A stretch of 64,000 bases of DNA from Candidatus Aenigmatarchaeota archaeon (GTDB taxonomy: Archaea > Aenigmatarchaeota > Aenigmatarchaeia > CG10238-14). The number at the start of each line of letters is the position of its first letter. The first letter of the stretch is position 1. A model generated the notes under the pieces. That model did no database searches and was not told where the DNA came from. It saw only the letters and a list, made by a program, of their open reading frames with translations. Below are positions 7,094 through 47,008 of the stretch, piece after piece. The stretch lies in the NCBI GenBank assembly GCA_018304545.1, contig JAGVVZ010000004.1:9944-73943 (forward strand), read 5' to 3'. The position numbers were made by a program, and so were the translations under genes.

Positions 7094-7110
7094 GAAAGTG
7101 ATTTATAAGT
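7094..7110 (+). promoter_or_regulatory. BRE/TATA promoter of the Trp module
   Basis: GAAAG..TTTATAAG about 30 nt before ATG 7138. Confidence 0.55.
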
Positions 7111-7137
7111 AACAATTGTATAATACTGTTGAGTCAA

Positions 7138-7176
7138 ATGGCTGGCGAAGACGTTTGGACTTTCGAAGTCCGCTAG
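7138..7176 (+). other. uORF MAGEDVWTFEVR (one Trp codon) overlapping the wHTH frame
   Basis: First ATG after the TATA box; stop TAG 7174-7176; wHTH lies in the +1 frame. Confidence 0.4.
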
Positions 7177-7372
7177 AAAGATATTGTTAGTTTTGTCTAG
7201 TTCTGATTCTCATGGTATAAATCAAAAGGAAATTAGAAATAGAACAGGTTTGTCGGTTAGAAATATTAAATATTGCCTTTCTTTTCTTAAACAAAGGAAC
7301 ATTGTTCTTGAAAATCTTGTTTTTAGGGACATGAGATGTAAAACCTATAAATTGAGAGGCGAGTCAGGATGA
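7157..7372 (+). CDS. small winged-helix transcriptional regulator (start ambiguous)
   Basis: GLSKSARKILLVL...INQKEIRNRTGLSVRNIKYCLSFL...DMRCKTYKL; wHTH-like sequence extends upstream of TTG 7184 with no in-frame ATG. Confidence 0.75.
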   Translation, partial: GLSKSARKILLVLSSSDSHGINQKEIRNRTGLSVRNIKYCLSFLKQRNIVLENLVFRDMRCKTYKLRGESG

Positions 7373-7375
7373 CTG

Positions 7376-8083
7376 GTGAACCTGTTTGGAAAGAAAGAGA
7401 AGAAACGGATAGTAGGAATTGTGGGAGGGTTGGGACCAGAGACAACATCCCAATTTTATTTAAAACTCATAGAACTAGCTAGAAAATATGATGACTCATA
7501 CCCCTCTTTGATCATAGATAACGTGGCTTTTCCATTCCGTTTAGAAAGAGAAATAATAATACACTCGAAAAACGAAGAGGAGATATTACCCTTCATAAAA
7601 GATTGCATTATTCGGCTAAACAAGGCAGGCGCAGATTATATAGTGATACCTTGCAATACTGTTCATGTTTTCATAGAAGATTTCAGAAAACTCTCGTCTG
7701 TTCCTGTTATTAGCATAGTCGAAGAATCTGTGAAGGATATAATTTCCCATGATTTTAAAAACGTAGGAATATTGGGCACGACAAAAACAATAGAGAGTGA
7801 AATTTATCAAAAGGAATTAAAAAGAAATGGAATAAAATTCACAATACCACCAACTAAGAGACAAAGAACGCTCTCTTCATTGATAGTAGATATACTTGAG
7901 GGTAAGAAAGATCCAGATTCAATAGATCTGATATGTAGTGAATTAATTTTACAGGGTTCTGATTGTCTCCTTCTTGCATGTACCGAGTTACAACTTGTAA
8001 CATCCGAAATAGACTTTAATGTCAGTGTTTTGGATACAACAAATATTTTGATCAAAAAAACCTTTGAAATTTTGAAAGGATGA
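7376..8083 (+). CDS. Asp/Glu-racemase-family amino acid racemase
   Basis: VGIVGGLGP; both catalytic Cys present (PCNT, ACTEL). Confidence 0.92.
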   Translation: MNLFGKKEKKRIVGIVGGLGPETTSQFYLKLIELARKYDDSYPSLIIDNVAFPFRLEREIIIHSKNEEEILPFIKDCIIRLNKAGADYIVIPCNTVHVFIEDFRKLSSVPVISIVEESVKDIISHDFKNVGILGTTKTIESEIYQKELKRNGIKFTIPPTKRQRTLSSLIVDILEGKKDPDSIDLICSELILQGSDCLLLACTELQLVTSEIDFNVSVLDTTNILIKKTFEILKG

Positions 8084-8087
8084 TTGT

Positions 8088-9065
8088 ATGTCGAATTTTT
8101 TATATGGCTCAATACCATTAATGGCAGAAAAAATTAGCAGGTTACCATTAAGACCAGCAGAAGAATTACCCGATTTGTATAATGAAAGTTTAATTATTAG
8201 AAGAGGGCACTTAATAGGTTACATACCATTCCATCCAGATGCAACAATCCTTACCTGCATGTGTTTTGAAAGTGGTGGTATTGGGTTATCTGTTTACCCA
8301 TCTTTAGAAATAGCAGATTCGTTGAAAAATATTCATCCTGTTAGATTTCTCATACCTACATATGAATACAGAACCTACAGACTACTGCCAGATAAAGATA
8401 TAAAAAGAAATGAAAGGGAAGCAAGAAAGTTACTTAATAACAGAGAATTTGAAGTAATAGATGTTTCAGAAGAACCTTATATGTCTAGAAGATTGAAAAT
8501 GTTTTCGAGAATATTGCCTTACATGAAATATGGAAATTCTCTAAATGCTTATCCTCTTGGAGATGGGTACCTTCAACTTGCATTAGGAGCTTTAGAAATA
8601 TCAGATATCCTTCTATGCGTAGAAGATCATGGAAATACTGTTGTGGTGTCTGATGAAGGATGCGCTGGTCCTGTAATAACAGCTAAAAGAATTGCAAAAT
8701 ATTTTGGATACAAAAGTGAAAATTTAGGAGTATTAGCATACTGCGAAGCTGTGAGTTTGGATGAAGAAAGTACAATGTATGCTGCTAGTGAAACAAATAA
8801 ACTTCATTTAATGAGTGATGATCCTGATAAAATAAAATATTCAATTACAACTGGCGGTAGAACAAAAGAAGAACATGCGTCACAAGGCGGTAAGCCATAT
8901 CAATGTCCAGTACAAGTAGTGCATTCTATGATTGCATATAATGATGCGATACTCGCTACTTGTGCTGAAGAATGTATGAAAGGCACTCTTGGATGTACAG
9001 ATCATAAATCACTAGTTATGGAAGAGTATGGACTCTTTATGCGAGGAACGGAGAGAAGGCCATGA
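8088..9065 (+). CDS. degenerate tryptophanyl-tRNA synthetase paralog
   Basis: Colinear similarity to adjacent TrpRS (IIRRGHLIG/FLRRGIFFA; DDPDKIKYSITTGGRTKEEHASQGGKP/DDPKQ..KYAYSGGQATIEEHRKKGGNP); HIGH, AIDQ and KMSSS motifs are lost. Confidence 0.8.
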   Translation: MSNFLYGSIPLMAEKISRLPLRPAEELPDLYNESLIIRRGHLIGYIPFHPDATILTCMCFESGGIGLSVYPSLEIADSLKNIHPVRFLIPTYEYRTYRLLPDKDIKRNEREARKLLNNREFEVIDVSEEPYMSRRLKMFSRILPYMKYGNSLNAYPLGDGYLQLALGALEISDILLCVEDHGNTVVVSDEGCAGPVITAKRIAKYFGYKSENLGVLAYCEAVSLDEESTMYAASETNKLHLMSDDPDKIKYSITTGGRTKEEHASQGGKPYQCPVQVVHSMIAYNDAILATCAEECMKGTLGCTDHKSLVMEEYGLFMRGTERRP

Positions 9066-9928
9066 AAAAAATAGAAGAATTTAGTTATGCATTCGAAGAA
9101 AAAGAACCTGTAATTACTATAAACCCAGGTGAAATAATAAAGCTCAAAATAGAAGACTGTTTTTCGGGAATGATTAAAAAGAAATCTGATTGGCCAAACG
9201 AGAAAATAATGGAATACGCTAATCCCTGTACGGGTCCTATTTATGTAAATGGGGCAGAGCCGGGAATGAGCTTATCCGTGGATGTATTAGATATAAAAGT
9301 AGGCCATAAAGGGACGAATATAGCAAAAGATTGGGGGATGCTCAATGGTCGTGTATATGGAATAAAGATAATGAAGATTGAAAAAAAGAAGCTCGTACTC
9401 AACGACAAAATAAAAATACAACTAGATCCCATGATAGGATGTATAGGCACCGCACCGAAAAATCCTGTTTCAACACTAAAAGCGGGTTATTTTGGAGGTA
9501 ACATGGACATAAATCTTGTTAGAAAAGGAAGCACCGTTCATTTACCCGTATTTGTTTCAGGTGGATTGCTATATATTGGAGATTTGCACGCATTGATGGG
9601 TGAGAGTGAACCCACGCTTTGTGCTATAGAAACTTATGGCGAGGTTTTAGTTAAAATAAATCTGACCTCACAAAAGATTTTACGACCAAGAATAGAAACG
9701 GGAGAGGAATTTGTAACGGTTGCTATAGAAAAGAATATGGAAACTGCCACTAAGATTGCTGTAAATGATATGTTCGATTTTTTAGTATATGAAGTTGGCA
9801 TTGATAAAATGGACGCTCATGTCTTGATAAGCGCGGCCTGTAATGTGAGATTGGGTGTACATGATGAAGTCGTGGCAATTGCTTTAATTAAGAGGGATAT
9901 CATAAAAAATTATATAAGGAGTGATTAA
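9062..9928 (+). CDS. acetamidase/formamidase family protein
   Basis: NPCTGPIYVNGAEPG, GGNMD, GDLHALMGESE. Confidence 0.92.
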   Translation: MKKIEEFSYAFEEKEPVITINPGEIIKLKIEDCFSGMIKKKSDWPNEKIMEYANPCTGPIYVNGAEPGMSLSVDVLDIKVGHKGTNIAKDWGMLNGRVYGIKIMKIEKKKLVLNDKIKIQLDPMIGCIGTAPKNPVSTLKAGYFGGNMDINLVRKGSTVHLPVFVSGGLLYIGDLHALMGESEPTLCAIETYGEVLVKINLTSQKILRPRIETGEEFVTVAIEKNMETATKIAVNDMFDFLVYEVGIDKMDAHVLISAACNVRLGVHDEVVAIALIKRDIIKNYIRSD

Positions 9929-10597
9929 ATGCAGCTATCAATTAACCAAAATCTAAAGTCCTCCTATCCCGATTTAAAGGTTTCAGTTTTTGAAGCCAAA
10001 ACAAAAAGCAAGTTGGAATTAAATCAGGATCTAATTACAAAGAAGAGAGAATTAGAAAAGATGATAAGAGAGAGCTATAAAGATACAGAAAGATTGGATA
10101 GAATAATAAAATATAACGCATTCTACAAAAAATTTGATTCCAAAGTACCCATGGAGTTTCAAATAAAATCTGTTATAGAAAACAAGGAAATCCCTCTTGT
10201 AAATTCTGTTGTCACTTGTATGTTTATGGCCGAATTGAAAAATATAATTTTAACGGCCGGCCATGATACGGGTAGACTTGGAGAAAAAATAAGAGTTTCT
10301 TGTTCAGATGGCACAGATGAGTATGTAAAAATAAATGGTAAACAGCAAAAACTAAAAAAAGGTGACATATTCGCTTCTGATAACAATGGAATAATATCTA
10401 GCGTATTTTATGGCCCAGACTTAAGAACAAAAATTACAGACGGAACAAAAAATTTTATGTTTATGTGTTACTGCCCATTTAGTATATCAGATAACGAAAT
10501 CAGAGGCCATATGCAAGATATCGTCGATTACTTGAAAATTTTGGGAGAGAACAAATTAGAGTTTGGCGATATTGAAGTTTTTAACGTAAAAAAATAA
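9929..10597 (+). CDS. stand-alone B3/4 domain protein (PheRS-beta editing-domain-like)
   Basis: YNAFYKKF, IPLVNSVV, AGHD, DNNGIISS, GPDLRTKIT. Confidence 0.85.
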   Translation: MQLSINQNLKSSYPDLKVSVFEAKTKSKLELNQDLITKKRELEKMIRESYKDTERLDRIIKYNAFYKKFDSKVPMEFQIKSVIENKEIPLVNSVVTCMFMAELKNIILTAGHDTGRLGEKIRVSCSDGTDEYVKINGKQQKLKKGDIFASDNNGIISSVFYGPDLRTKITDGTKNFMFMCYCPFSISDNEIRGHMQDIVDYLKILGENKLEFGDIEVFNVKK

Positions 10598-10613
10598 TAG
10601 TATAGATGATTAT

Positions 10614-11741
10614 ATGAGAGATAAATTTATTGTCACACCATGGGAAGTCAGAGGAAATATAGACTACAGTAAATTAATAAAACAATTTGGTGTCCAACAC
10701 CTTGACAATAAGCTATTAGAAAGAATGAAGAAACACACTGGAGAGGTGCATTATTTTTTAAGAAGGGGGATTTTCTTCGCTCATATGTACTTTGATGTAA
10801 TTTTAAATGATTTAGAAAAAGGTAAGAAATTTTATTTGTATACTGGAAGAGCACCGTCAGGTCCTGTTCATATAGGTCATTTGATCCCGTGGATATTTAC
10901 AAAATGGCTTCAGGATAAATTTAAAGCAACATTATTGTTTGAAATTCCAGACGAGGAAAAGTTTCTGTTCAAAGATAATTTTTCGATGGATGATGCTAAA
11001 AAATGGGCATATGAAAATATATTGGACATAATTGCTCTAGGTTTTGACCCGAAAAGAACGAAGATATTCCTGAATACCGAGTACGCTAAGACTCTCTATA
11101 AAAACGCATGTTTTGTAGCGAAAAAAATTACTGTTTCGACTGCTAAATCAACATTCGGCTTTACAGACTCTAATAATATTGGAGAGTATTTTTACACATC
11201 CATGCAATCCGTCCCTGCATTTTTGCCAACAATTCTAGAGAAAAGGGAGACACACTGCTTAATTCCATGCGCGATAGATCAAGACGTTCACTTCAGATTA
11301 ACGAGAGACGTTGCCATATCTTTAGGTTATCCAAAACCCGCAACGTTGCTTTGCAGATTTCTGCCAGGTCTACAAGGCATAGAACATGAAGGCAAGATGT
11401 CGTCATCTGAATCACATACTGCAATTTTTACTACTGATGACCCCAAACAAGTGCATGATAAAGTAATGAAGTATGCTTATTCTGGTGGCCAGGCAACTAT
11501 AGAGGAACACAGGAAGAAAGGAGGAAACCCTGATGTAGATGTATCTTATCAATGGCTCACATTCTTCGAAGAGAATGACAAAAAACTAAAGAAAATACAT
11601 GATGATTATAAATCCGGAAAACTGTTAACAGGAGAATTAAAACAGATACTGATAGATAAACTAAACAAATTCTTAAAAGAACATCAGGCAAGGAGAGAAA
11701 AGGCAAGGAATGAAATTGAGAAATTCATGCTTAGAGATTGA
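10614..11741 (+). CDS. trpS: tryptophanyl-tRNA synthetase
   Basis: VTPWEV, YTGRAPS, HIGH, AIDQ, KMSSS. Confidence 0.98.
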   Translation: MRDKFIVTPWEVRGNIDYSKLIKQFGVQHLDNKLLERMKKHTGEVHYFLRRGIFFAHMYFDVILNDLEKGKKFYLYTGRAPSGPVHIGHLIPWIFTKWLQDKFKATLLFEIPDEEKFLFKDNFSMDDAKKWAYENILDIIALGFDPKRTKIFLNTEYAKTLYKNACFVAKKITVSTAKSTFGFTDSNNIGEYFYTSMQSVPAFLPTILEKRETHCLIPCAIDQDVHFRLTRDVAISLGYPKPATLLCRFLPGLQGIEHEGKMSSSESHTAIFTTDDPKQVHDKVMKYAYSGGQATIEEHRKKGGNPDVDVSYQWLTFFEENDKKLKKIHDDYKSGKLLTGELKQILIDKLNKFLKEHQARREKARNEIEKFMLRD

Positions 11742-11997
11742 AACATCGATGATTTTAATCTCTTTAGTTTCATTTTATATTATGACAACTTTGTCCTATT
11801 ATGCTGCTAGAACAGCAGGATGTTTACTTACTTTAGGAGGACTTGGACTTTATACTTTATCTAACGATACATATCATATTATTCCCTTACTATTCGTTGC
11901 TGCTGGTTTGTATGCATTGTTTTGTAAGTTTGAAAATGAGAATAAAAATAAACATCATACCTGGAATCGTGTGGAAAGGGAACTTCGTTCATATTAA
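11710..11997 (+). CDS. small membrane hypothetical protein (true start likely about 11782)
   Basis: Two hydrophobic segments. Confidence 0.45.
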   Translation: MKLRNSCLEIETSMILISLVSFYIMTTLSYYAARTAGCLLTLGGLGLYTLSNDTYHIIPLLFVAAGLYALFCKFENENKNKHHTWNRVERELRSY

Positions 11998-12043
11998 CTA
12001 AGATATCCAAAAAGCAGTTTTAAGCATAAGTTCTATTATATTA

Positions 12044-12355
12044 TTGATGAAACGTAAAAAACCAGAATGGCAATTAGAAATTGCAAAGGAGAGAATAGAG
12101 AAACTCTTCTCTTTAGCTGGATCTACTTACGATTCAACTCCTAATAGAAGCAGAAGATATGTTGAGCTTGCCAGAAAAATAGGTTTGAGGTATAATGTTA
12201 GGCTCGATAAAGAACAGAAAAGGAATTTTTGTAAGAAATGCAATACTATTTTGATGCCTGGCAAAACATCCCAAACTCACTTGGATTCTAGAACAAAGGC
12301 TATAATTATAAAATGTCAGAACTGCAATTATATTTCCAGATATCCATACAAGTGA
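12044..12355 (+). CDS. rnp4: RNase P protein component 4 (Rpp21)
   Basis: IAKERIEKLF, RYVELARKI, CKKC...CQNC...RYPY. Confidence 0.95.
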   Translation: MMKRKKPEWQLEIAKERIEKLFSLAGSTYDSTPNRSRRYVELARKIGLRYNVRLDKEQKRNFCKKCNTILMPGKTSQTHLDSRTKAIIIKCQNCNYISRYPYK

Positions 12356-12359
12356 GTCG

Positions 12360-12608
12360 ATGGCTTTAAGCATAAAAATAATAGCTTTAGGTATTTTAGT
12401 GGTTTTCATATCAACCTTTGCCATATTGTTTATTTTGGATTCTTTATATAAGGCGAAGGCATCATGCGATAAAAATAAAAATATTAAAATATGTAAAATA
12501 GGTACAGCTCAAATAGTCGTTTTGATGCTGATATTATTAGTAGGTGGGTTATTTATAGTAATTATAACCACTGGTTATGTATTAATATCAGGTCAAGAAT
12601 CGGTGTAA
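12360..12608 (+). CDS. small two-TM membrane protein
   Basis: Two hydrophobic helices flanking a Cys-containing loop; within operon. Confidence 0.6.
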   Translation: MALSIKIIALGILVVFISTFAILFILDSLYKAKASCDKNKNIKICKIGTAQIVVLMLILLVGGLFIVIITTGYVLISGQESV

Positions 12609-12611
12609 AAT

Positions 12612-13040
12612 ATGGTAAGAACATTGATAAGAGAAATGGATACGAAAAGCTTCATTGATAAATGTGCAGAAGAATTTTTAAAAATGAAAGAAATGCAGAT
12701 GCCAGAAAATTTTATATATTCAAAAACAGGACCACACAAAAAATATTCGCCAAGCAATCCAAATTGGTGGTATATTAGGGCCGCTTCCTTGCTGAGAAGA
12801 GTTTATTTGAATGGTCCAGTTGGTGTTTCAAGATTAAGGTCATATTATGGTGGTAGGAAAGAGAGAGGTCATAAACCAGAAAAAACAGTTAGATCAGGTG
12901 GCGGATCAATCAGAGAGATACTACAGCAATTGGAGACAGTAGGTTTTGTGGAAAAGAACAAGGGTAAAAAACCGGGCAGAATCATTAGCCAGAAAGGCGA
13001 TAATTTTGTCAAAAAGATTGTCTCTGAGGCCAATAAATGA
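12612..13040 (+). CDS. rps19e: 30S ribosomal protein S19e
   Basis: KTG, WWYIRAASLLR, GPVGV..LR..YGG, LQQLE. Confidence 0.97.
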   Translation: MVRTLIREMDTKSFIDKCAEEFLKMKEMQMPENFIYSKTGPHKKYSPSNPNWWYIRAASLLRRVYLNGPVGVSRLRSYYGGRKERGHKPEKTVRSGGGSIREILQQLETVGFVEKNKGKKPGRIISQKGDNFVKKIVSEANK

Positions 13041-13297
13041 ATGACGAACTGAATGAAGAAGAATCAAGAGAAATGGAAAACTTAAAAAGAACTGTAATGA
13101 ATAGAGTATTGGAAAAAGAAGCGTATGAAAGATTGGCAAGATTAAGACTGGTGAATCCAAATCTGGCAAACCATCTTGAAATGTATTTGCTGCAATTGTA
13201 TCAGAATGATCAAATAAAAGGTATTATAACGGATGATCAACTCAAAAAAATATTGTCTAGTATAAACACAAAAAGAGATTTTAAAATAATAAGATGA
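13037..13297 (+). CDS. PDCD5-like DNA-binding protein
   Basis: [24 protein letters not shown]; conserved after rps19e. Confidence 0.9.
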
Positions 13298-13301
13298 TAA
13301 C

Positions 13302-13532
13302 ATGGGAAGAACAAAAAAAGTTGGAATAACAGGCAGGTATGGCGTCAGATACGGTAGAAAAGTAAAAGTAGCAATAAATAAAATTGAACAAAAACAAAAA
13401 CAAAAACATACATGCCCTGTTTGCAAAAAAGATTCTGTGAAAAGAGTAGTTGCAGGTATTTGGCAATGTAGGAAATGCTCGGCTAAATTTAGCGGTGGAG
13501 CGTATGAGCCTAAAACATCAGGTGATATATAA
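13302..13532 (+). CDS. rpl37ae: 50S ribosomal protein L37ae
   Basis: [30 protein letters not shown]. Confidence 0.97.
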
Positions 13533-13663
13533 TGGGTTTTAAATGCTTAAGCTGTAAAAAAATTATCGAAAAATTAGATAACAGGATAAGATGTCCTTAT
13601 TGCGGGTACAGGATATTTTTAAAACAAAGACCGGTTACCGTTAAAAGAGTCCAAGCAAAGTAA
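13532..13663 (+). CDS. rpoP: RNA polymerase subunit Rpo12 (P)
   Basis: Not in ORF track; MGFKCLSC...IRCPYCGYRIFLKQRP (43 aa). Confidence 0.93.
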   Translation: MGFKCLSCKKIIEKLDNRIRCPYCGYRIFLKQRPVTVKRVQAK

Positions 13664-13704
13664 GCATAATTTATTATAAGTTATAATAATTATCTAGTGA
13701 TTTC

Positions 13705-14301
13705 TTGAAAAAGATAGCAGGATTATTATTGGTTATTTTAGTATTGTACACATTATTGCCAGCAGTTGTTTTTAGTGTTTGCACCAATCACGAAGTCAGG
13801 GTTAATGGGACATCATTTTATTTTTATAACGGGAGTAAAATAAACCTTGGGAATGTTACTGCAATAACTGTTGAAAAACAGGAGAAGAGTATAGGGCTAA
13901 TAAATAATGGTGACTGGTCGCTTGTTTTTAGTGCATGTACTGAAGAATCAGAATCTATAGGATTGAAAGTGACAGACAATTCAAAGGTTGTCGGGTTTGA
14001 TCAGTTAAAAATAGTTACAGATAATCCTTCTACAGCGACAGTCGCGTGTACTGTTCAAAACGTTTCTTTATCTGGATACGGAATAGATGCGGATAACGGA
14101 TCGTTAATAACAGGCGGAGTAGTTAAGACATCAATATCCGATACTGCATACATAAACAGTACGGCATTCACGGGTAGCAATTGGTCTATTGACTTTTATC
14201 CTTGTTTAACGAGCGGCAAGTACTATACATTGCATATAGTATTGTCCAATGCAGGCGGAACAAAGGCAGGAGAATATTCAACAAGTTATTTAGCCGGATA
14301 A
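13705..14301 (+). CDS. secreted protein with two internal beta-rich repeats
   Basis: Signal peptide; repeated NGS.I..G.V...WS..F..C. Confidence 0.65.
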   Translation: MKKIAGLLLVILVLYTLLPAVVFSVCTNHEVRVNGTSFYFYNGSKINLGNVTAITVEKQEKSIGLINNGDWSLVFSACTEESESIGLKVTDNSKVVGFDQLKIVTDNPSTATVACTVQNVSLSGYGIDADNGSLITGGVVKTSISDTAYINSTAFTGSNWSIDFYPCLTSGKYYTLHIVLSNAGGTKAGEYSTSYLAG

Positions 14302-14377
14302 AATATTGATCGAATAAAGATAAACCATTTAAAGACTGTTTCTAATTCATATTTGATATAGTTTAAGAGGCAATCAA

Positions 14378-26460: not shown

Positions 26461-26952
26461 TTGAACTCATATGATGATATCATGAATGACAATATAATAA
26501 GAGTCGTTAAAAAATTAAAAAAATTAAATATTCCTTATAGAATTATTGAACTTGGCGGAACTGGAAGAACATCACAAGATGTAGCTAGATTAACAAATAT
26601 CAATCTAAGAGAAGTTTGTAAAACGCTTATAGTGAGGGCTGATAACGATACTATGGCTGTGGTTATATTGCCCGGGCCATTCAAAATAGACAATAAAAAA
26701 CTGAAAGAATTGTTAAAAACCAAAAACACGAGATTTCTTAATGAGGATGAATTAAAACAGAACACGCCGTTTTCTCCCGGCGAAGTTTGTCCAATAATTA
26801 TTGAAAAAATTCCTATATACATTGATAAAAGAGTTTTCGATACTAAAAAAGTAAATTTTGGGTCGGGTGATCTTTATTTTGGGATCGAAATAAATTCTAA
26901 TGATATAAATAAATGCATAAAAGGAGAGGTTGTTGATATAGCTGTTGAGTAA
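26461..26952 (+). CDS. YbaK/ProX aminoacyl-tRNA deacylase
   Basis: VCKTLIV with conserved Lys, PGEVCP, FGSG. Confidence 0.88.
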   Translation: MNSYDDIMNDNIIRVVKKLKKLNIPYRIIELGGTGRTSQDVARLTNINLREVCKTLIVRADNDTMAVVILPGPFKIDNKKLKELLKTKNTRFLNEDELKQNTPFSPGEVCPIIIEKIPIYIDKRVFDTKKVNFGSGDLYFGIEINSNDINKCIKGEVVDIAVE

Positions 26953-28958: not shown

Positions 28959-29145
28959 AATAACATTATATGAATGGGTTTTAGACAGAATACCGAGGCC
29001 ATATGAGTTGTCCATAGACGTTCCTGGTCATTGGGAACAAATAGAAGTAGCACGAGAAAAAGCCCAGAGATTATTAAGAGGTGGCGCATCATGGAAATAC
29101 AGAACTTCTTTAGAGTTACCACAAAATGGTGTCTATAGTGAATGA
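28936..29145 (+). CDS. orphan hypothetical protein
   Basis: GGAGTGA RBS then ATG 28936; ends 2 nt before tRNA-Tyr. Confidence 0.5.
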   Translation: MTNEQSDKITLYEWVLDRIPRPYELSIDVPGHWEQIEVAREKAQRLLRGGASWKYRTSLELPQNGVYSE

Positions 29146-29147
29146 AA

Positions 29148-29260
29148 CCCGCGGTAGCTCAATCGCAGAGCAGTCGGCTGTAGATGAATACTATGTATTT
29201 GTTACCGGCAGCTGTTCTATAGAGACCGAAAGATTGGGAGTTCAACTCTCCCCCGTGGGA
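29148..29260 (+). tRNA. tRNA-Tyr(GTA) with 41-nt intron (29184-29224)
   Basis: CCCGCGG/CCGTGGG acceptor (C1-G72, A73), CT-GTA-G, BHB helix CTGT/ATAG, T-arm GGGAG-TTCAACT-CTCCC. Confidence 0.9.
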
Positions 29261-29293
29261 TACTTAACCAAAATTGGAAAAATGGTGATTAAA

Positions 29294-30310
29294 ATGAATT
29301 TTTTCAGAGAATGTATAGAAAACAAAAACAGGAAAGAATTTTACTGGATGAAAAGAAAGGGAAAAATTAAGTTAGACATGACTGCAAATCCCATACAACC
29401 AGAAATAAATTGGAACGAAGTAATAAAATTTTCCACTGAAGAACTAAGAAAATATCCAAATAATTCTGAGTTGTATGAATTAAAAAGAGAGATAGCCAGA
29501 GATCATAAGATAGACACTAATAGCATTATGGTAACTACTGGAGCAGATGACGCCATTGAAATAATACTATTGCATTTGTTAAATCCAAAAGATAAAATAG
29601 GTATACACATACCAACCTTTCCTAGATTTCTCATTGTAGCAAAGCAGCTTTGTGATGCAGATGTAATCACATTTAAAAATATAAATGATATACCAGAATC
29701 GAAAGTTGTAGTTTTATGTACGCCAAATAACCCAACAACTAAGGAAATATCAAGAGGTGATTTGATAAAACTGCTCGAGGAAAATCAAAATAAGATGTTT
29801 GTAATTGATTGTGTATTTAGTGATTTTGGCAGATTCGACCCAACATCAATGATAAAAAAGTTCGACAATTTAATTGTAATAAAATCCACATCAAAGATTG
29901 GTATAGCAGGCGTCAGAGTTGGGTTTATTATATCTAAGAGGAAAAATATACGCAGTCTCAGAGAAGGAATATCACCATTTAGCGTGTCATTGGTGAATCA
30001 AAAAATAGCTTTTGAGGCAATAAAGGACAAAGAACATATGAAGAAGAGCTTAAATTTTTTAAAGAAGGAATGGTCCTTCATTAAAAGAAAAATGCCTGAA
30101 GCAGAAAGGGAAACTAACGTGCCGTTTTTCTTAGTAAAGACAAGACAAGATTCGGCAACCGTTTGCAGAAAATTGTTAAGTAGAGGCATTCAAGTAGCAA
30201 ATGGAGAAGATTTCATAGGTCTCGGTAATAATTGGATAAGAGTTTCAATAGGCAGCAGAGAAGAAAATGAAGAGTTTGTAAAAAATTTTAAAATCATCAA
30301 TTGTGATTAA
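29294..30310 (+). CDS. class I/II PLP aminotransferase (HisC/aromatic-type)
   Basis: YP, GADDAI, PNNPT, STSKIGIAGVRVG, IRVSIG; GGTGA RBS before ATG 29294. Confidence 0.88.
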   Translation: MNFFRECIENKNRKEFYWMKRKGKIKLDMTANPIQPEINWNEVIKFSTEELRKYPNNSELYELKREIARDHKIDTNSIMVTTGADDAIEIILLHLLNPKDKIGIHIPTFPRFLIVAKQLCDADVITFKNINDIPESKVVVLCTPNNPTTKEISRGDLIKLLEENQNKMFVIDCVFSDFGRFDPTSMIKKFDNLIVIKSTSKIGIAGVRVGFIISKRKNIRSLREGISPFSVSLVNQKIAFEAIKDKEHMKKSLNFLKKEWSFIKRKMPEAERETNVPFFLVKTRQDSATVCRKLLSRGIQVANGEDFIGLGNNWIRVSIGSREENEEFVKNFKIINCD

Positions 30311-31226
30311 AATGGATAAAGTGAACGAGATTAAGAGGTTCATAGCAAACAAAGGAATTGAAGCTGATATAATAGAGCATAAATTATTAGGATTAAAAAG
30401 TGAGGATGCTGCAAAGGCTACAGGATTTTATATAGGAAACATTATAAAAACACTGCTTTTTGTAAGCGAAGATAATACTATTGTTACTATATGTTTAGGT
30501 GTAGATAAAATTGATATCGAAAAACTTTCCGGAATATCTGGATTAAAAAAACCAAGACTAGCAACAAAAGATGAATTGAAAACTATTTTAAATACAAAAC
30601 CTGGCGGGACCCCTCCTATATGTTTACCAGAAAAAACTGCAGTTTTGATTGATGGAAAAGTGTTAGAAAAGAATTTTGTCATTGGATTTGGGGGATCTGA
30701 GTTTATCGGATTGAAAATTAAACCAAATGAAATAGTTAAACATTCAAATGCTAAAATTGCAGATATAACCATTGATTGTATGAACGAAGAAACAAAAACG
30801 CATACAGCCCTGCATATTGTAAAAGGAGCTACGCAAAAAGTTTTAGGAACAGTATTAACTACAAGCGTTTATGTAGACGATTCTAATGGCAGACTAACGG
30901 TTCAATGTGGTAATAAACCAACAAATGAAGAAATACAAAGAATAGAACTAGAAGCTAATAATTGCATAAACGAGAATAACGAAGTAAAGATTTTAGAAAT
31001 AGATAGAAAAGAAGCGGAAGATATATTTGGTAATATTATATACGACGTCTTTCCAGTGCCATCACATATAACTAAGCTTAAAATCTTAGAAATTGAAAAT
31101 TGGAATATAAATTGTTGTAATAAAGAACATACTAGAACAACTAGAGAAGTTGGGAAAATAGAAATTGATAAGATAAGATTTAGAGATGTTAAACAGTTAT
31201 TGGAGATATCATTTAAGGTGATTTAA
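30303..31226 (+). CDS. YbaK-AlaX-S fusion (two tRNA trans-editing domains)
   Basis: IIKTLLF, PGGTPP (YbaK); HTALHIVKG and WNINCCNKEH (AlaX-S). Confidence 0.88.
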   Translation: MIKMDKVNEIKRFIANKGIEADIIEHKLLGLKSEDAAKATGFYIGNIIKTLLFVSEDNTIVTICLGVDKIDIEKLSGISGLKKPRLATKDELKTILNTKPGGTPPICLPEKTAVLIDGKVLEKNFVIGFGGSEFIGLKIKPNEIVKHSNAKIADITIDCMNEETKTHTALHIVKGATQKVLGTVLTTSVYVDDSNGRLTVQCGNKPTNEEIQRIELEANNCINENNEVKILEIDRKEAEDIFGNIIYDVFPVPSHITKLKILEIENWNINCCNKEHTRTTREVGKIEIDKIRFRDVKQLLEISFKVI

Positions 31227-32308
31227 TGGATCTAGAAAGAAGAATTGACTTAATAAGGGCGCCACCAACAGAAGAAATAATTACTGAAGGAGATCTAAGA
31301 ACGTTATTAGAAACTAAAAGCCATCCCACTGCTTATGACGGGTTTGAAACGTCTGGCCAAATGCATTTAGGCTCCGCTGTTTTACGTGCAATAAAAATTC
31401 AAGACATGCTAGATGCTCAATGCGAATTCATTTTATGGATAGCAGATTGGTTTGCTTACATTAACAACAAAATGGGCGGTAATTTAGATCTGATCAAAAA
31501 GACAGGCGAATATTATCTAGAGGGTTGGAAGGCATGCGGAATTGATATGAAAAAGGTTAAAATTTTATGGACTAGTGATGCTGTTAAAGATTCTGATTAT
31601 TGGAAAGGTGTTATTGACATCGCAAAAAATTCAACAGTGCAAAGAACAATAAGAGCAGCTACAATCATGGGAAGAAAGGAAGCAGAAATGCAATATACAG
31701 CTCAGCTAATCTATCCGATGATGCAGGCGTGGGATCCGTTCTACTTTAAAGCAGACATATTGCAGTTGGGTATGGACCAAAGAAAAGCGACTATATTATC
31801 AAGAGAACTTGCTCCCAAGTTAGAACAATCTACAAGAGTCTGCGTTCATCACCATCTTCTTGCTGGTTTACAAGGTCCTGATGAAGGTAGAATGGGTCAA
31901 GAGACGGCAACGATGCAAATAGAAGCTAAAATGAGCAAATCTAAACCACAAACAGCTGTATTCATTCATGATTCTAGAAGAGAAATAGAAGAAAAAATAA
32001 ACAAAGCATTTTGCCCTGAGAAAATTGTTGACGGAAATCCTATATTGGAAATATGGAAATACATTATTTTAAGAAAATTCAAATCTAGAACAATAGAAAG
32101 GTCTCCAAAATTTGGAGGGAACATGGAAATACATGATTATTCAGATATTGAGCTAGAATTCAAGAACGGTAAACTTCATCCGCTTGATTTAAAAAAAGAA
32201 ACTATTCAGGCATTAGATGAAATATTAAGTCCAATAAGAAGGCATTTTGAGAAAGGAAAGGCAAAAGAACTATTTGATACAGTAAGAAATGCGCAGATAA
32301 CTAGATAA
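31226..32308 (+). CDS. tyrS: tyrosyl-tRNA synthetase
   Basis: YDGFE.SG, HLGS, YPMMQ, GMDQRK, KMSKS, LHPLDLK. Confidence 0.97.
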   Translation: MDLERRIDLIRAPPTEEIITEGDLRTLLETKSHPTAYDGFETSGQMHLGSAVLRAIKIQDMLDAQCEFILWIADWFAYINNKMGGNLDLIKKTGEYYLEGWKACGIDMKKVKILWTSDAVKDSDYWKGVIDIAKNSTVQRTIRAATIMGRKEAEMQYTAQLIYPMMQAWDPFYFKADILQLGMDQRKATILSRELAPKLEQSTRVCVHHHLLAGLQGPDEGRMGQETATMQIEAKMSKSKPQTAVFIHDSRREIEEKINKAFCPEKIVDGNPILEIWKYIILRKFKSRTIERSPKFGGNMEIHDYSDIELEFKNGKLHPLDLKKETIQALDEILSPIRRHFEKGKAKELFDTVRNAQITR

Positions 32309-46289: not shown

Positions 46290-46883
46290 ATGTTTGAGAG
46301 CATAGTTGCCAGCTTGGAAACTTTCTCATTAGCATTTGGTCCTCTAGGAATTTTCATTGGAATGGCTTTAGAATCCAGTATCATACCTGTTCCTGCTGAA
46401 GCTGTTTTAGCAGCAGCCACTCTACTAGGATATACACCTTTAGAAGTGGCTATATGGGGCGGCTTAGGTGCGACATTTGGCGGAGTAATAGGATATTATA
46501 TAGGCAGTTTGGGCGGGAGACCTATACTCAACAAATACGGCAAATATATCTTTATAACAGAAGAAAAATTGAACGGGCTCGATAGTCTTTTCAAGAAACG
46601 CGGCAACTTTGTCGTTCTGGCAGGAAGGTTAATACCATTTATTCCATTCAAAATATTTTCAATAACAGCCGGGATAGCAAAAATGGATATTAAAGGATTT
46701 ACTCTGTTCACCCTAATAGGATCTATACCCAGAGCATTCATGCTTTCTTATCTCGGATACAAGCTTCTAGAGATAGGCAATGTGCCATTGATGATCTTAT
46801 CCATGTTCTTGCTGTTGATAATTCCTTTTGCTGTTGAAGGATGGATAACACGAAAAGGAAAAAAAGACAAAAACAACAAATAG
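46290..46883 (+). CDS. DedA family membrane protein
   Basis: LESSIIPVPAE, YYIG..GGRP, GRLIP. Confidence 0.92.
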   Translation: MFESIVASLETFSLAFGPLGIFIGMALESSIIPVPAEAVLAAATLLGYTPLEVAIWGGLGATFGGVIGYYIGSLGGRPILNKYGKYIFITEEKLNGLDSLFKKRGNFVVLAGRLIPFIPFKIFSITAGIAKMDIKGFTLFTLIGSIPRAFMLSYLGYKLLEIGNVPLMILSMFLLLIIPFAVEGWITRKGKKDKNNK

Positions 46884-46968
46884 CCCCGCCCAGATTCGAA
46901 CTGGGGTCTAGAGCTCCAGAGGCTCTTATGCTTGACCATTCTGCGTTTGCACTCTACACCACGGGGCT
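46881..46968 (-). tRNA. tRNA-Gln(CTG) with 15-nt D-loop intron (46939-46953)
   Basis: AGCCCCG/CGGGGCT acceptor, AGAGC-CTCTGGA-GCTCT, T-arm CCCAG-TTCGAAT-CTGGG; extra AGTGCAAACGCAGAA after position 15. Confidence 0.9.
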
Positions 46969-47008
46969 ATGACTAGAATTGGGATTTTGAAAATTAAAAT
47001 GATGTGAT

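Follow-up and report, generated by a model that had tools for sequence, protein, structure and literature searches.

The closest described parallels to the locus reported here come from several systems. The gene of release factor RF2, prfB, is autoregulated through a +1 frameshift site with the sequence CUU UGA C, and Ty1 has a +1 site of the hungry-codon kind. Bacteria sense Trp-tRNA by trpL attenuation, rtpLP/anti-TRAP, tnaC leader peptides and T-box riboswitches. Inactive paralogs of aminoacyl-tRNA synthetases serve as sensors or adaptors, as in HisZ and the HisRS-like domain of Gcn2. To our knowledge, little is known on how archaea regulate their synthetase genes. CtdA is, according to the accessible text of PMC12449066, a proven free-standing B3/B4 aminoacyl-tRNA deacylase, acting on canavanyl-tRNA(Arg). 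Here we describe the operon of the tryptophanyl-tRNA synthetase (TrpRS) gene, trpS, at positions 7138–11741 of a stretch of 64,000 nucleotides from a Candidatus Aenigmatarchaeota archaeon (assembly GCA_018304545.1, contig JAGVVZ010000004.1, positions 9,944–73,943), in the following called the window. The locus belongs to a small, symbiont-type DPANN archaeon (Aenigmarchaeota-type). It is a trpS operon of variable make-up, with what appear to be editing-type accessories, and is more unusual than an earlier, sequence-only reading had recognized. We consider it rather probable that this trpS operon, with its accessories for tRNA(Trp) and amino-acid quality, stands under a regulator that depends on a +1 frameshift at a Trp codon.

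Six open reading frames (ORFs) lie on the same strand, with spacings of 3, 4, −4, 0 and 16 nt, and a TATA-like box precedes them. This agrees with the sequence-only reading, which had described six co-oriented genes with gaps of at most 16 nt behind a TATA box. The features are:

7102–7108, forward strand: TATA-like box TTTATAA, ~30 nt 5′ of ATG 7138, kept in two sister species (alignment)
7138–7176, forward strand: leader frame of 12 codons, codon 7 being UGG (7156–7158), with the stop at 7174–7176
7153–7159, forward strand: proposed +1 shift site GTT TGG A, where P-site GUU would re-pair on UUU with UGG waiting in the A site
7157–7372, forward strand: body of a small winged-helix regulator in the +1 frame, giving a 78-residue product together with the six leader codons 7138–7155
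7184–7372, forward strand: the regulator ORF when counted from TTG, 62 amino acids in the regulator frame
7376–8083, forward strand: Asp/Glu-type amino-acid racemase, independent of pyridoxal phosphate, TIGR00035 subfamily (profile scores; PCNTVH and ACTEL motifs)
8088–9065, forward strand: TrpRS-like paralog without HIGH and KMSKS, 325 residues, with C273-x22-C296-x6-C303-x2-H306-K307 in the anticodon-binding domain
9062–9928, forward strand: short hydrolase of the acetamidase/formamidase family, 288 amino acids, its start overlapping the paralog stop by 4 nt
9929–10597, forward strand: free-standing B3/4 protein; members of its clade stand next to TrpRS or are fused to it (Pfam, clade profile)
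10614–11741, forward strand: canonical archaeal-type TrpRS, with HIGH as HIGH and KMSKS as KMSSS (profile scores)

All six genes were found in the same order in two sister species of the genus (G001 and G002, with paralog identities of 88% and 72%), which excludes a chance juxtaposition in a single assembly. The last gene scored 535 bits against NF008927 (cut-off 478) and 287 against TIGR00233 (cut-off 177), and its translation has VHIGHL and KMSSS. It was the sole TrpRS found in the genome (0.96 Mb, 92% complete).

The sequence-only reading had started the first gene at ATG 7138 and had overlooked that the regulator can apparently be read only through a +1 change of frame at a Trp codon. The frame of this ATG ends after 12 codons, ruling out a conventional start there, and the regulator, recognized by weak HTH_24/MarR-like winged-helix matches in a profile search, is encoded in the +1 frame. 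That frame is open no further upstream than 7133; before the shift site it has a CTG, at 7142, and no ATG, GTG or TTG. In G002, the open part of the regulator frame has no ATG, GTG, TTG or CTG, and TTG 7184 of the window is replaced by CTG. Between 7154 and 7204 nine codons differ between the window and G002 (alignment read by eye). Eight of the nine changes are synonymous in the regulator frame, indicating that the stretch after the junction is translated in that frame. An ATG followed by 15 nt and TGG was present in the three species of the genus (window, G001 and G002) and in 14 additional loci. Like the species of the genus, the distant loci L015 and L017 have exactly this spacing. The junction reads (C/G/T)TT TGG in the window, G001, G002, L015 and L017. 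The tetramer GTTT is also present in frame within the regulator body.

Searching 371 genomes of the phylum and 40 fetched stretches with a profile of the regulator, we classified 26 loci as Trp-type (L015 and L088, being one contig, were counted once). A trpS gene lay 0.24–3.5 kb downstream on the same strand in 22 of them, and three stretches ended too early to judge (L073, L098, L109). Fourteen of the 26 loci lacked a conventional route of translation. Six of these had no in-frame start before the site; three of the six (G015, G018, G020) carried TAG directly before TTT, and in G015 there was no start codon for another 9 codons. In the other eight, the winged-helix domain itself was split over two or three frames, with UGG at each junction. 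Six of the split genes need two successive shifts, at CTT TGG twice (L113, L114, L109), at CTT TGG and then CCC TGG (L110), or at CCC TGG twice (L102, L103), while L104 and L107 have one CTT TGG site, after helix 1. A single rule, +1 at an in-frame [C/G/T]TT TGG or CCC TGG, decoded 16 of 16 genes from their ATG into winged-helix proteins of 68–89 amino acids ending at the expected stop. The split domains and the in-frame stops make conventional translation untenable for such genes. Most loci also had a Shine-Dalgarno-like GGTGA/GGTGG element 3–4 nt before the slip codon, which may have a role in the slip.

Ten paralogous regulators had (C/G)TT TG(C/T) at the matching site and were decoded by the same +1 rule. 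These Cys-type regulators were followed by a cysteinyl-tRNA synthetase (CysRS) at a distance of 0.26–1.7 kb in 7/7 tested loci (ORFs of ~450–480 residues; L100, L105, L106, L108, L119, L121, L123); two further loci of the set are on short stretches. At times another gene stood between regulator and CysRS; its product is a PALP enzyme in L100, a HAD hydrolase in L105 and an ATC_hydrolase in L123. Read in the +1 frame, the residue that follows the site is either Ala or Val, a difference that is synonymous (Cys) in the leader frame. Four genomes (G018, G020, G180, G248) carried both Trp-type and Cys-type regulators.

A distant relative of the regulator was seen in L120 (G097:C29:349600-357600). 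There, GAA AAG C stands at the matching leader position, before a class I lysyl-tRNA synthetase (LysRS, 561 amino acids) that is followed by a CtdA-like B3/4 gene. L120 is possibly a Lys-type member, as a single case in which an in-frame GTG is present.

Together, these loci suggest that the winged-helix regulator family is a ribosome-based gauge of charged tRNA, shifting +1 once or twice at UGG (trpS), at UGC/UGU (cysS) and possibly at AAG (class I lysS), in operons that add proofreading modules (B3/4, YbaK-like, dead TrpRS plus hydrolase). A shortage of the cognate aminoacyl-tRNA would in this way give rise to the transcription factor of the respective synthetase operon, an RF2-like loop extended to sense codons. 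We place moderate confidence in this reading. The gene layout comes from sequence and comparison, and the slip and its dependence on Trp-tRNA would be analogous to prfB and Ty1. Transcription would begin just 5′ of ATG 7138, judging from the spacing of TTTATAA, which probably acts as the promoter. The ribosome would initiate at ATG 7138, and with UGG codon 7 decoded as Trp it would stop after 12 codons. Decoding of UGG is presumably slow under Trp-tRNA shortage. With Trp-tRNA(Trp) scarce, the A site would be empty, the P-site tRNA would move from GUU to UUU (+1), and the 72-codon winged-helix body would be read. The regulator may then adjust the transcription of its own operon, by activation or by repression. 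Further along the operon, TrpRS would charge tRNA(Trp), the B3/4 protein would hydrolyse wrongly made aminoacyl-tRNA(Trp), with D-Trp or a Trp analogue as candidates, and the racemase would convert an amino acid that matters for the supply of Trp between its D and L forms.

The layout is that of a programmed +1 site, as the product needs +1 at a conserved, re-pairable P-site codon and the A-site codon behind it. It shares with prfB the short leading frame, the XUU P-site codon that can re-pair on UUU, the slow A-site codon, and a full product obtained only after +1. In both, the factor that decodes the A-site codon is the product of the regulated pathway. Unlike in prfB, the A-site codon here is a sense codon, UGG (UGC/UGU before cysS), so that charged tRNA would be sensed in place of a release factor. 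Further, the product is a predicted DNA-binding regulator rather than a decoding factor, some of the genes would need two shifts, and the hosts are archaea. With trpL, rtpLP/anti-TRAP, tnaC and the T-box the locus shares the coupling of Trp-gene expression to cognate Trp codons in a short leader. It differs from them in that a frame change would create a transcription factor, whereas those systems work by terminator/antiterminator folding or tRNA–mRNA binding. Our literature search found no description of frameshift-controlled synthetase regulators, and a term search in the accessible text of the 2021 review of archaeal recoding (PMC8211752) returned neither “tryptophan” nor “transcriptional regulator”.

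The free-standing B3/4 protein scored 30.4 bits against PF03483 (cut-off 29.3), a marginal match, its fused relatives reaching 32–42 bits. The profile of its clade, which comprises 29 database proteins, matched the editing region of the beta subunit of phenylalanyl-tRNA synthetase (PheRS; 3pco_B residues 264–335, 6e-4, weak), and no PDB entry matched the single sequence with an E value of 1 or less. At the pocket positions the clade has conserved motifs of its own, MFMAELKN..LTAGHD and IISS.LYGPD.RTKIT, and D113 is invariant. B3/4 was fused N-terminally to TrpRS in 5 of the 371 genomes (G020, G297, G298, G325, G326) and adjacent to it in three; fusions are also present as the database proteins P0040 and P0041. 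These gene fusions show the link of B3/4 to TrpRS. In G020, which belongs to the same family as the window genome, a racemase, a YbaK-like editing protein and a 602-residue B3/4-TrpRS fusion share a contig with a Trp-type regulator. The fusions of G297, G298, G325 and G326 come from another family and have a second TrpRS type, ~30% identical to the TrpRS of the window. In two of these (L029 in G326 and L032 in G325) we saw a gene of 361–362 residues, similar to tyrosyl-tRNA synthetase (TyrRS), abutting the start of the fusion.

We know of no editing function of TrpRS, which is thought to need none. The B3/4 protein of the window is a probable aminoacyl-tRNA(Trp) deacylase, as judged from its domain and gene neighbours. 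Like CtdA (PDB 9mkl and 9f7e), it is a single-domain protein (~220–235 amino acids) of the same architecture, encoded beside the synthetase whose tRNA would be cleared. The partner here is TrpRS, and full-length identity to the CtdA homologue of the same genome is 21% (3e-9). In the accessible text of PMC12449066, archaeal members are reported only in the uncharacterised CtdA-2 clade. Relatives of the trpS-linked clade may already be among these members.

Pairs of synthetases with editing domains were also seen elsewhere. The window genome has three other B3/4 copies: (i) a CtdA-like gene after the arginyl-tRNA synthetase (ArgRS) gene; (ii) a fusion of methionyl-tRNA synthetase (MetRS) with B3/4 and an AlaX-like domain; and (iii) PheRS-beta. 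In the first (L018, G000:C4:49795-53256), a CtdA homologue of 234 residues (9mkl, 7e-27) with the N/G/C pocket kept begins 9 nt behind ArgRS, and an ArgRS and CtdA-like pair within 0.6 kb was present in another genome of the phylum (L042). MetRS with an inserted B3/4 was recognized in at least nine genomes or loci (L019 at G000:C7:23328-26681, L017 at 11628-14324, L035, L037, L039, L040, L045, L048 and L050), followed by an AlaX-like editing domain in the window genome and by a Trbp111-like tRNA-binding domain in L017. The window itself carries a TyrRS unit at 29126–32308 with overlapping or abutting genes: an aminotransferase (29126–30310), a 307-residue tRNA_edit protein of the YbaK/ProX type (30303–31226) and a TyrRS-like gene (31226–32308). 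Its gene content suggests that the other class Ic synthetase is organized alike. The window has one more tRNA_edit match, at 26461–26952, and the 0.96 Mb genome five.

The paralog at 8088–9065 had no Pfam match. Its residues 222–321 matched TrpRS models (5e-10), the best of which gave 38.9 bits against a cut-off of 478. In an alignment with five TrpRS, a stretch shorter by ~16 residues (..LSVYPSLEIA..) stands in place of the HIGH helix, and TMYAA in place of KMSKS. Having lost both motifs, the paralog is not a synthetase. Its AlphaFold model (pLDDT 72, pTM 0.69) returned eukaryotic and archaeal TrpRS as the top 30 or more Foldseek matches (4e-10, TM 0.44–0.52). The sequence-only reading had called it a dead TrpRS paralog. 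The class Ic fold and the anticodon-binding domain are both present, and K307, G256/G257 and G267/G268 (SGG-like loop) are invariant with TrpRS. K307 aligns with human K431, and Y70 and E93 are the equivalents of Tyr159 and Glu199. In human TrpRS K431 reads C35 (residue roles from PMC1538984).

Cys273, Cys296, Cys303 and His306 of the paralog align with human D397, Y420, T427 and L430, the positions of the [4Fe-4S] ligands in Thermotoga maritima. The TrpRS of that bacterium has, according to the accessible text of PMC2954223, a [4Fe-4S] cluster in the anticodon-binding domain. The paralog has the same C-x22-C-x6-C-x2- arrangement at the same positions, with the universally conserved C35-reading lysine directly behind it. 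The three cysteines were invariant in seven of seven paralogs, with His at the fourth position in six and Cys in one (P0006). The differences from the T. maritima enzyme are the fourth ligand, mostly His, the loss of HIGH/KMSKS, and a metal centre that is predicted and could be zinc. Separately, a canonical TrpRS of 374 residues with C-x23-C-x6-C-x2-C-K in the anticodon domain was found in L131 (G221:C1:136082-139450). It has the [4Fe-4S]-type motif, and the paralog may plausibly have arisen from a TrpRS of this kind.

The paralog is rare. An exhaustive HMMER search of 1.84 billion representatives gave five real clusters, and 5 of 371 genomes of the phylum had it. The seven-sequence alignment was too divergent for a locus scan, for which four distant members were used, yielding one genome locus and two metagenome loci. 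In all eight loci with enough flank, trpS, of either TrpRS type, lay 0–3 genes downstream. Although the sequences are only 25–35% identical, 27 columns are invariant, and the frames are intact. In the window, L015 and L016, the paralog shares 4 nt with the gene behind it. The product of the following gene is an FmdA amidase at four loci; three others have a DUF3335 C39-like peptidase there, and at one an unassigned 127-residue protein is followed by NIF3. A complex prediction of paralog and amidase gave no support, a result that counts neither for nor against binding. In our literature search no match was found for a described TrpRS paralog of this kind. A second paralog–amidase pair, ~70% identical to that of the window, was seen on a 2.6 kb contig (L014, G001:C76), beside a TrpRS of the other type (32% identical) and with no B3/4; it may stem from a different organism binned with G001 (contamination 3%).

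The paralog would no longer activate Trp with ATP. Most likely, it would be a tRNA(Trp)-binding adaptor that forms, with the translationally coupled hydrolase, a second and rare tRNA(Trp)-directed module acting in trans; this is the least secure step of the proposed mechanism. As in HisZ and Gcn2, a synthetase fold has lost the aminoacylation motifs and kept the parts that bind ligand or tRNA. The partner enzyme and the kinase of those systems are absent here; the gene sits in a trpS operon and is paired with a small hydrolase whose family varies.

The racemase matched PF01177 with 129 bits (2.4e-37) and TIGR00035 with 150 (cut-off 93), and fell below the cut-off of the cysteate-racemase equivalog (151 against 190). 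We take its PCNTVH and ACTEL motifs to be the catalytic Cys pair. A homologue stood between regulator and trpS in 12 of the 22 trpS-linked loci, in several families. The amidase matched FmdA_AmdA (2.3e-26, 93 bits against a cut-off of 27) and the PDB entries 3tkk (1e-44) and 2ii1 (6e-43). It follows the paralog also in L012, L013 and L014, and accompanies the paralog only, not trpS generally. Neither DTD1 nor DTD2 was found in the window genome, which also had no trpB above cut-off. A reading as D-Trp salvage with chiral proofreading would be coherent.

The sequence-only reading had seen the locus as a TrpRS-centred quality-control unit. Comparison supports such a unit, with B3/4-TrpRS fusions in other genomes, a racemase repeatedly in trpS operons and the paralog always beside trpS; for the amidase, no conserved association with trpS was seen. 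The chemistry offered with it (racemisation of D-Trp, de-formylation of Trp derivatives, deacylation of D-Trp-tRNA) has no direct support.

Two further features of the window were noted. An ORF of 95 residues at 11710–11997, hydrophobic-looking, overlaps the last 32 nt of trpS and is possibly part of the operon. G001 has it too (~78% identity), and tblastn did not find it in G002. A tRNA-like gene at 46880–46969, reverse strand, was considered as a special tRNA(Trp) and rejected, its anticodon loop being CUCUGGA (CUG, Gln). It was left unnamed by ARAGORN, has a 14-nt insert in the D-region and scored 26.2 with the Rfam tRNA model (gathering 29).

Several observations weigh against the readings given above, and some of them favour other explanations. 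Among the sequencing runs listed for positions 7100–11800, none was of RNA. Behind the CTT TGG leader of L092 (G248:C1:776700-784700) the next gene is NosD-like/beta-helix, with no trpS within 7 kb, an exception that may point to a second target or to a trpS that has moved elsewhere. The Cys-type locus L099 has no CysRS-sized ORF within 5 kb. Within the regulator frame, a Phe codon followed by a G-initial codon allows the overlapping leader codon to be only Trp, Cys or stop, and the match of codon to synthetase is alone worth only about 1 in 8. In 542 long ORFs of the genome, slip hexamers occurred 162 times (175.7 expected), and the observed/expected ratio of slip-type codon pairs was 0.92 against 1.04–1.39 for eight other T-initial codons, a weak deficit. 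The hexamers are thus not clearly avoided in ordinary genes, and the site alone is not strongly shift-prone. An in-frame GTG or TTG lies near the site in 12 of the 26 Trp-type loci, where conventional translation is possible in principle. The regulator might then start at GTG three codons before the Phe codon (−9 in L015, L017, L091–L097, L069, L073), at TTG two codons after it (+6 in L063, L090), or at a non-canonical codon such as CTG 7142 of the window. The ATG frame would be a separate leader peptide or functionless and, if regulatory, would work without frameshifting, through stalling at UGG that blocks or unmasks the start codon close by, as in attenuation. The frequency of XTT TGG pairs in ordinary genes fits this explanation. 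It does not accommodate the eight loci with the winged-helix domain over two or three frames and a UGG site per junction, nor the TAG right before the Phe codon in G015, G018 and G020, with G015 start-free for 9 more codons. It is likewise at odds with the start-free open frame of G002 and with the region 5′ of TTG 7184, which evolves synonymously in the regulator frame. We regard conventional translation as unlikely, and prefer the +1 frameshift.

The roles proposed for the accessory proteins have weak points as well. The CtdA pocket residues N105, G116, C166 and Q173 are F, A, S and P in the window B3/4 protein, so that it lacks the CtdA pocket, whereas the B3/4 protein encoded beside ArgRS in this genome has N, G, C and E at these columns (numbering of S. 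enterica CtdA, with Q173/E at the last position and a chain offset of +2). This loss, the marginal Pfam score and the insertion of B3/4 into MetRS beside tRNA-binding modules would suit a domain added to class I synthetases (TrpRS, MetRS) to raise their tRNA affinity, and not a hydrolase. The strongly conserved pocket motifs of the clade, with D113 invariant, argue against this, as does the fold: of its branches, the two that have been characterised, PheRS editing domain and CtdA, are hydrolases in the accessible text of PMC12449066. A tRNA-binding domain has a small chance of being right. The absence of DTD2 was tried as a marker of genomes with B3/4-TrpRS and rejected. DTD2 was found in 1 of 371 genomes, and its lack in the other 370 is a background condition and not a specific correlate. 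For the paralog, the equivalent of Gln194 is hydrophobic, the AIDQ alignment is off by two residues in MAFFT, and the partner hydrolase varies between lineages. Paralog and hydrolase could instead, along the lines of the alternative raised in the sequence-only reading, form a tRNA-dependent module of biosynthesis or transfer, moving Trp from Trp-tRNA(Trp) to an acceptor in the manner of a cyclodipeptide synthase, with the hydrolase processing the product. The retained Y70, E93 and anticodon-binding lysine and the 4-nt overlap with the next gene (window, L015, L016) would fit. Cyclodipeptide synthases are not known to have an anticodon-binding domain. The paralog itself, tried as such a synthase (a catalytic domain alone), was rejected, since it keeps the C-terminal helical domain and its top fold matches are full TrpRS. 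In the accessible text of PMC3105412, cyclodipeptide synthases are class-I synthetase-like, have no ATP motifs and use aminoacyl-tRNAs. A transfer module seems improbable, as the partner family changes (FmdA, DUF3335, NIF3) and the neighbourhood has no further genes for biosynthesis, export or immunity. Less probable still is that the accessory genes share no function with TrpRS, being packed together by a small dense genome, with the paralog a decaying duplicate. Its presence in just 5 of 371 genomes, an amidase with trpS only at paralog loci and the tight packing of neighbouring window genes would be expected then; B3/4-TrpRS fusions in two families, a racemase in 12 of 22 trpS operons, and a paralog with 27 invariant columns and intact frames, always beside trpS of two TrpRS types, would not.

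For the biology of these archaea, the pairing of B3/4, YbaK-like and AlaX-like domains with TrpRS, TyrRS, MetRS, ArgRS and LysRS suggests an unusually heavy investment in trans-editing by tiny scavenging genomes without the usual D-aminoacyl-tRNA deacylases. The rare paralog would be a natural example of how a synthetase became a tRNA-specific adaptor, with a putative metal centre. In annotation, regulators of this family are called as truncated or missing genes, and the split ones would pass for pseudogenes. If the frame change is real, it would be a new way of sensing charged tRNA that needs neither riboswitch nor terminator. A slip-prone codon pair, before or inside the regulator gene, would suffice, and the sensor could be retargeted to another amino acid by one codon change.

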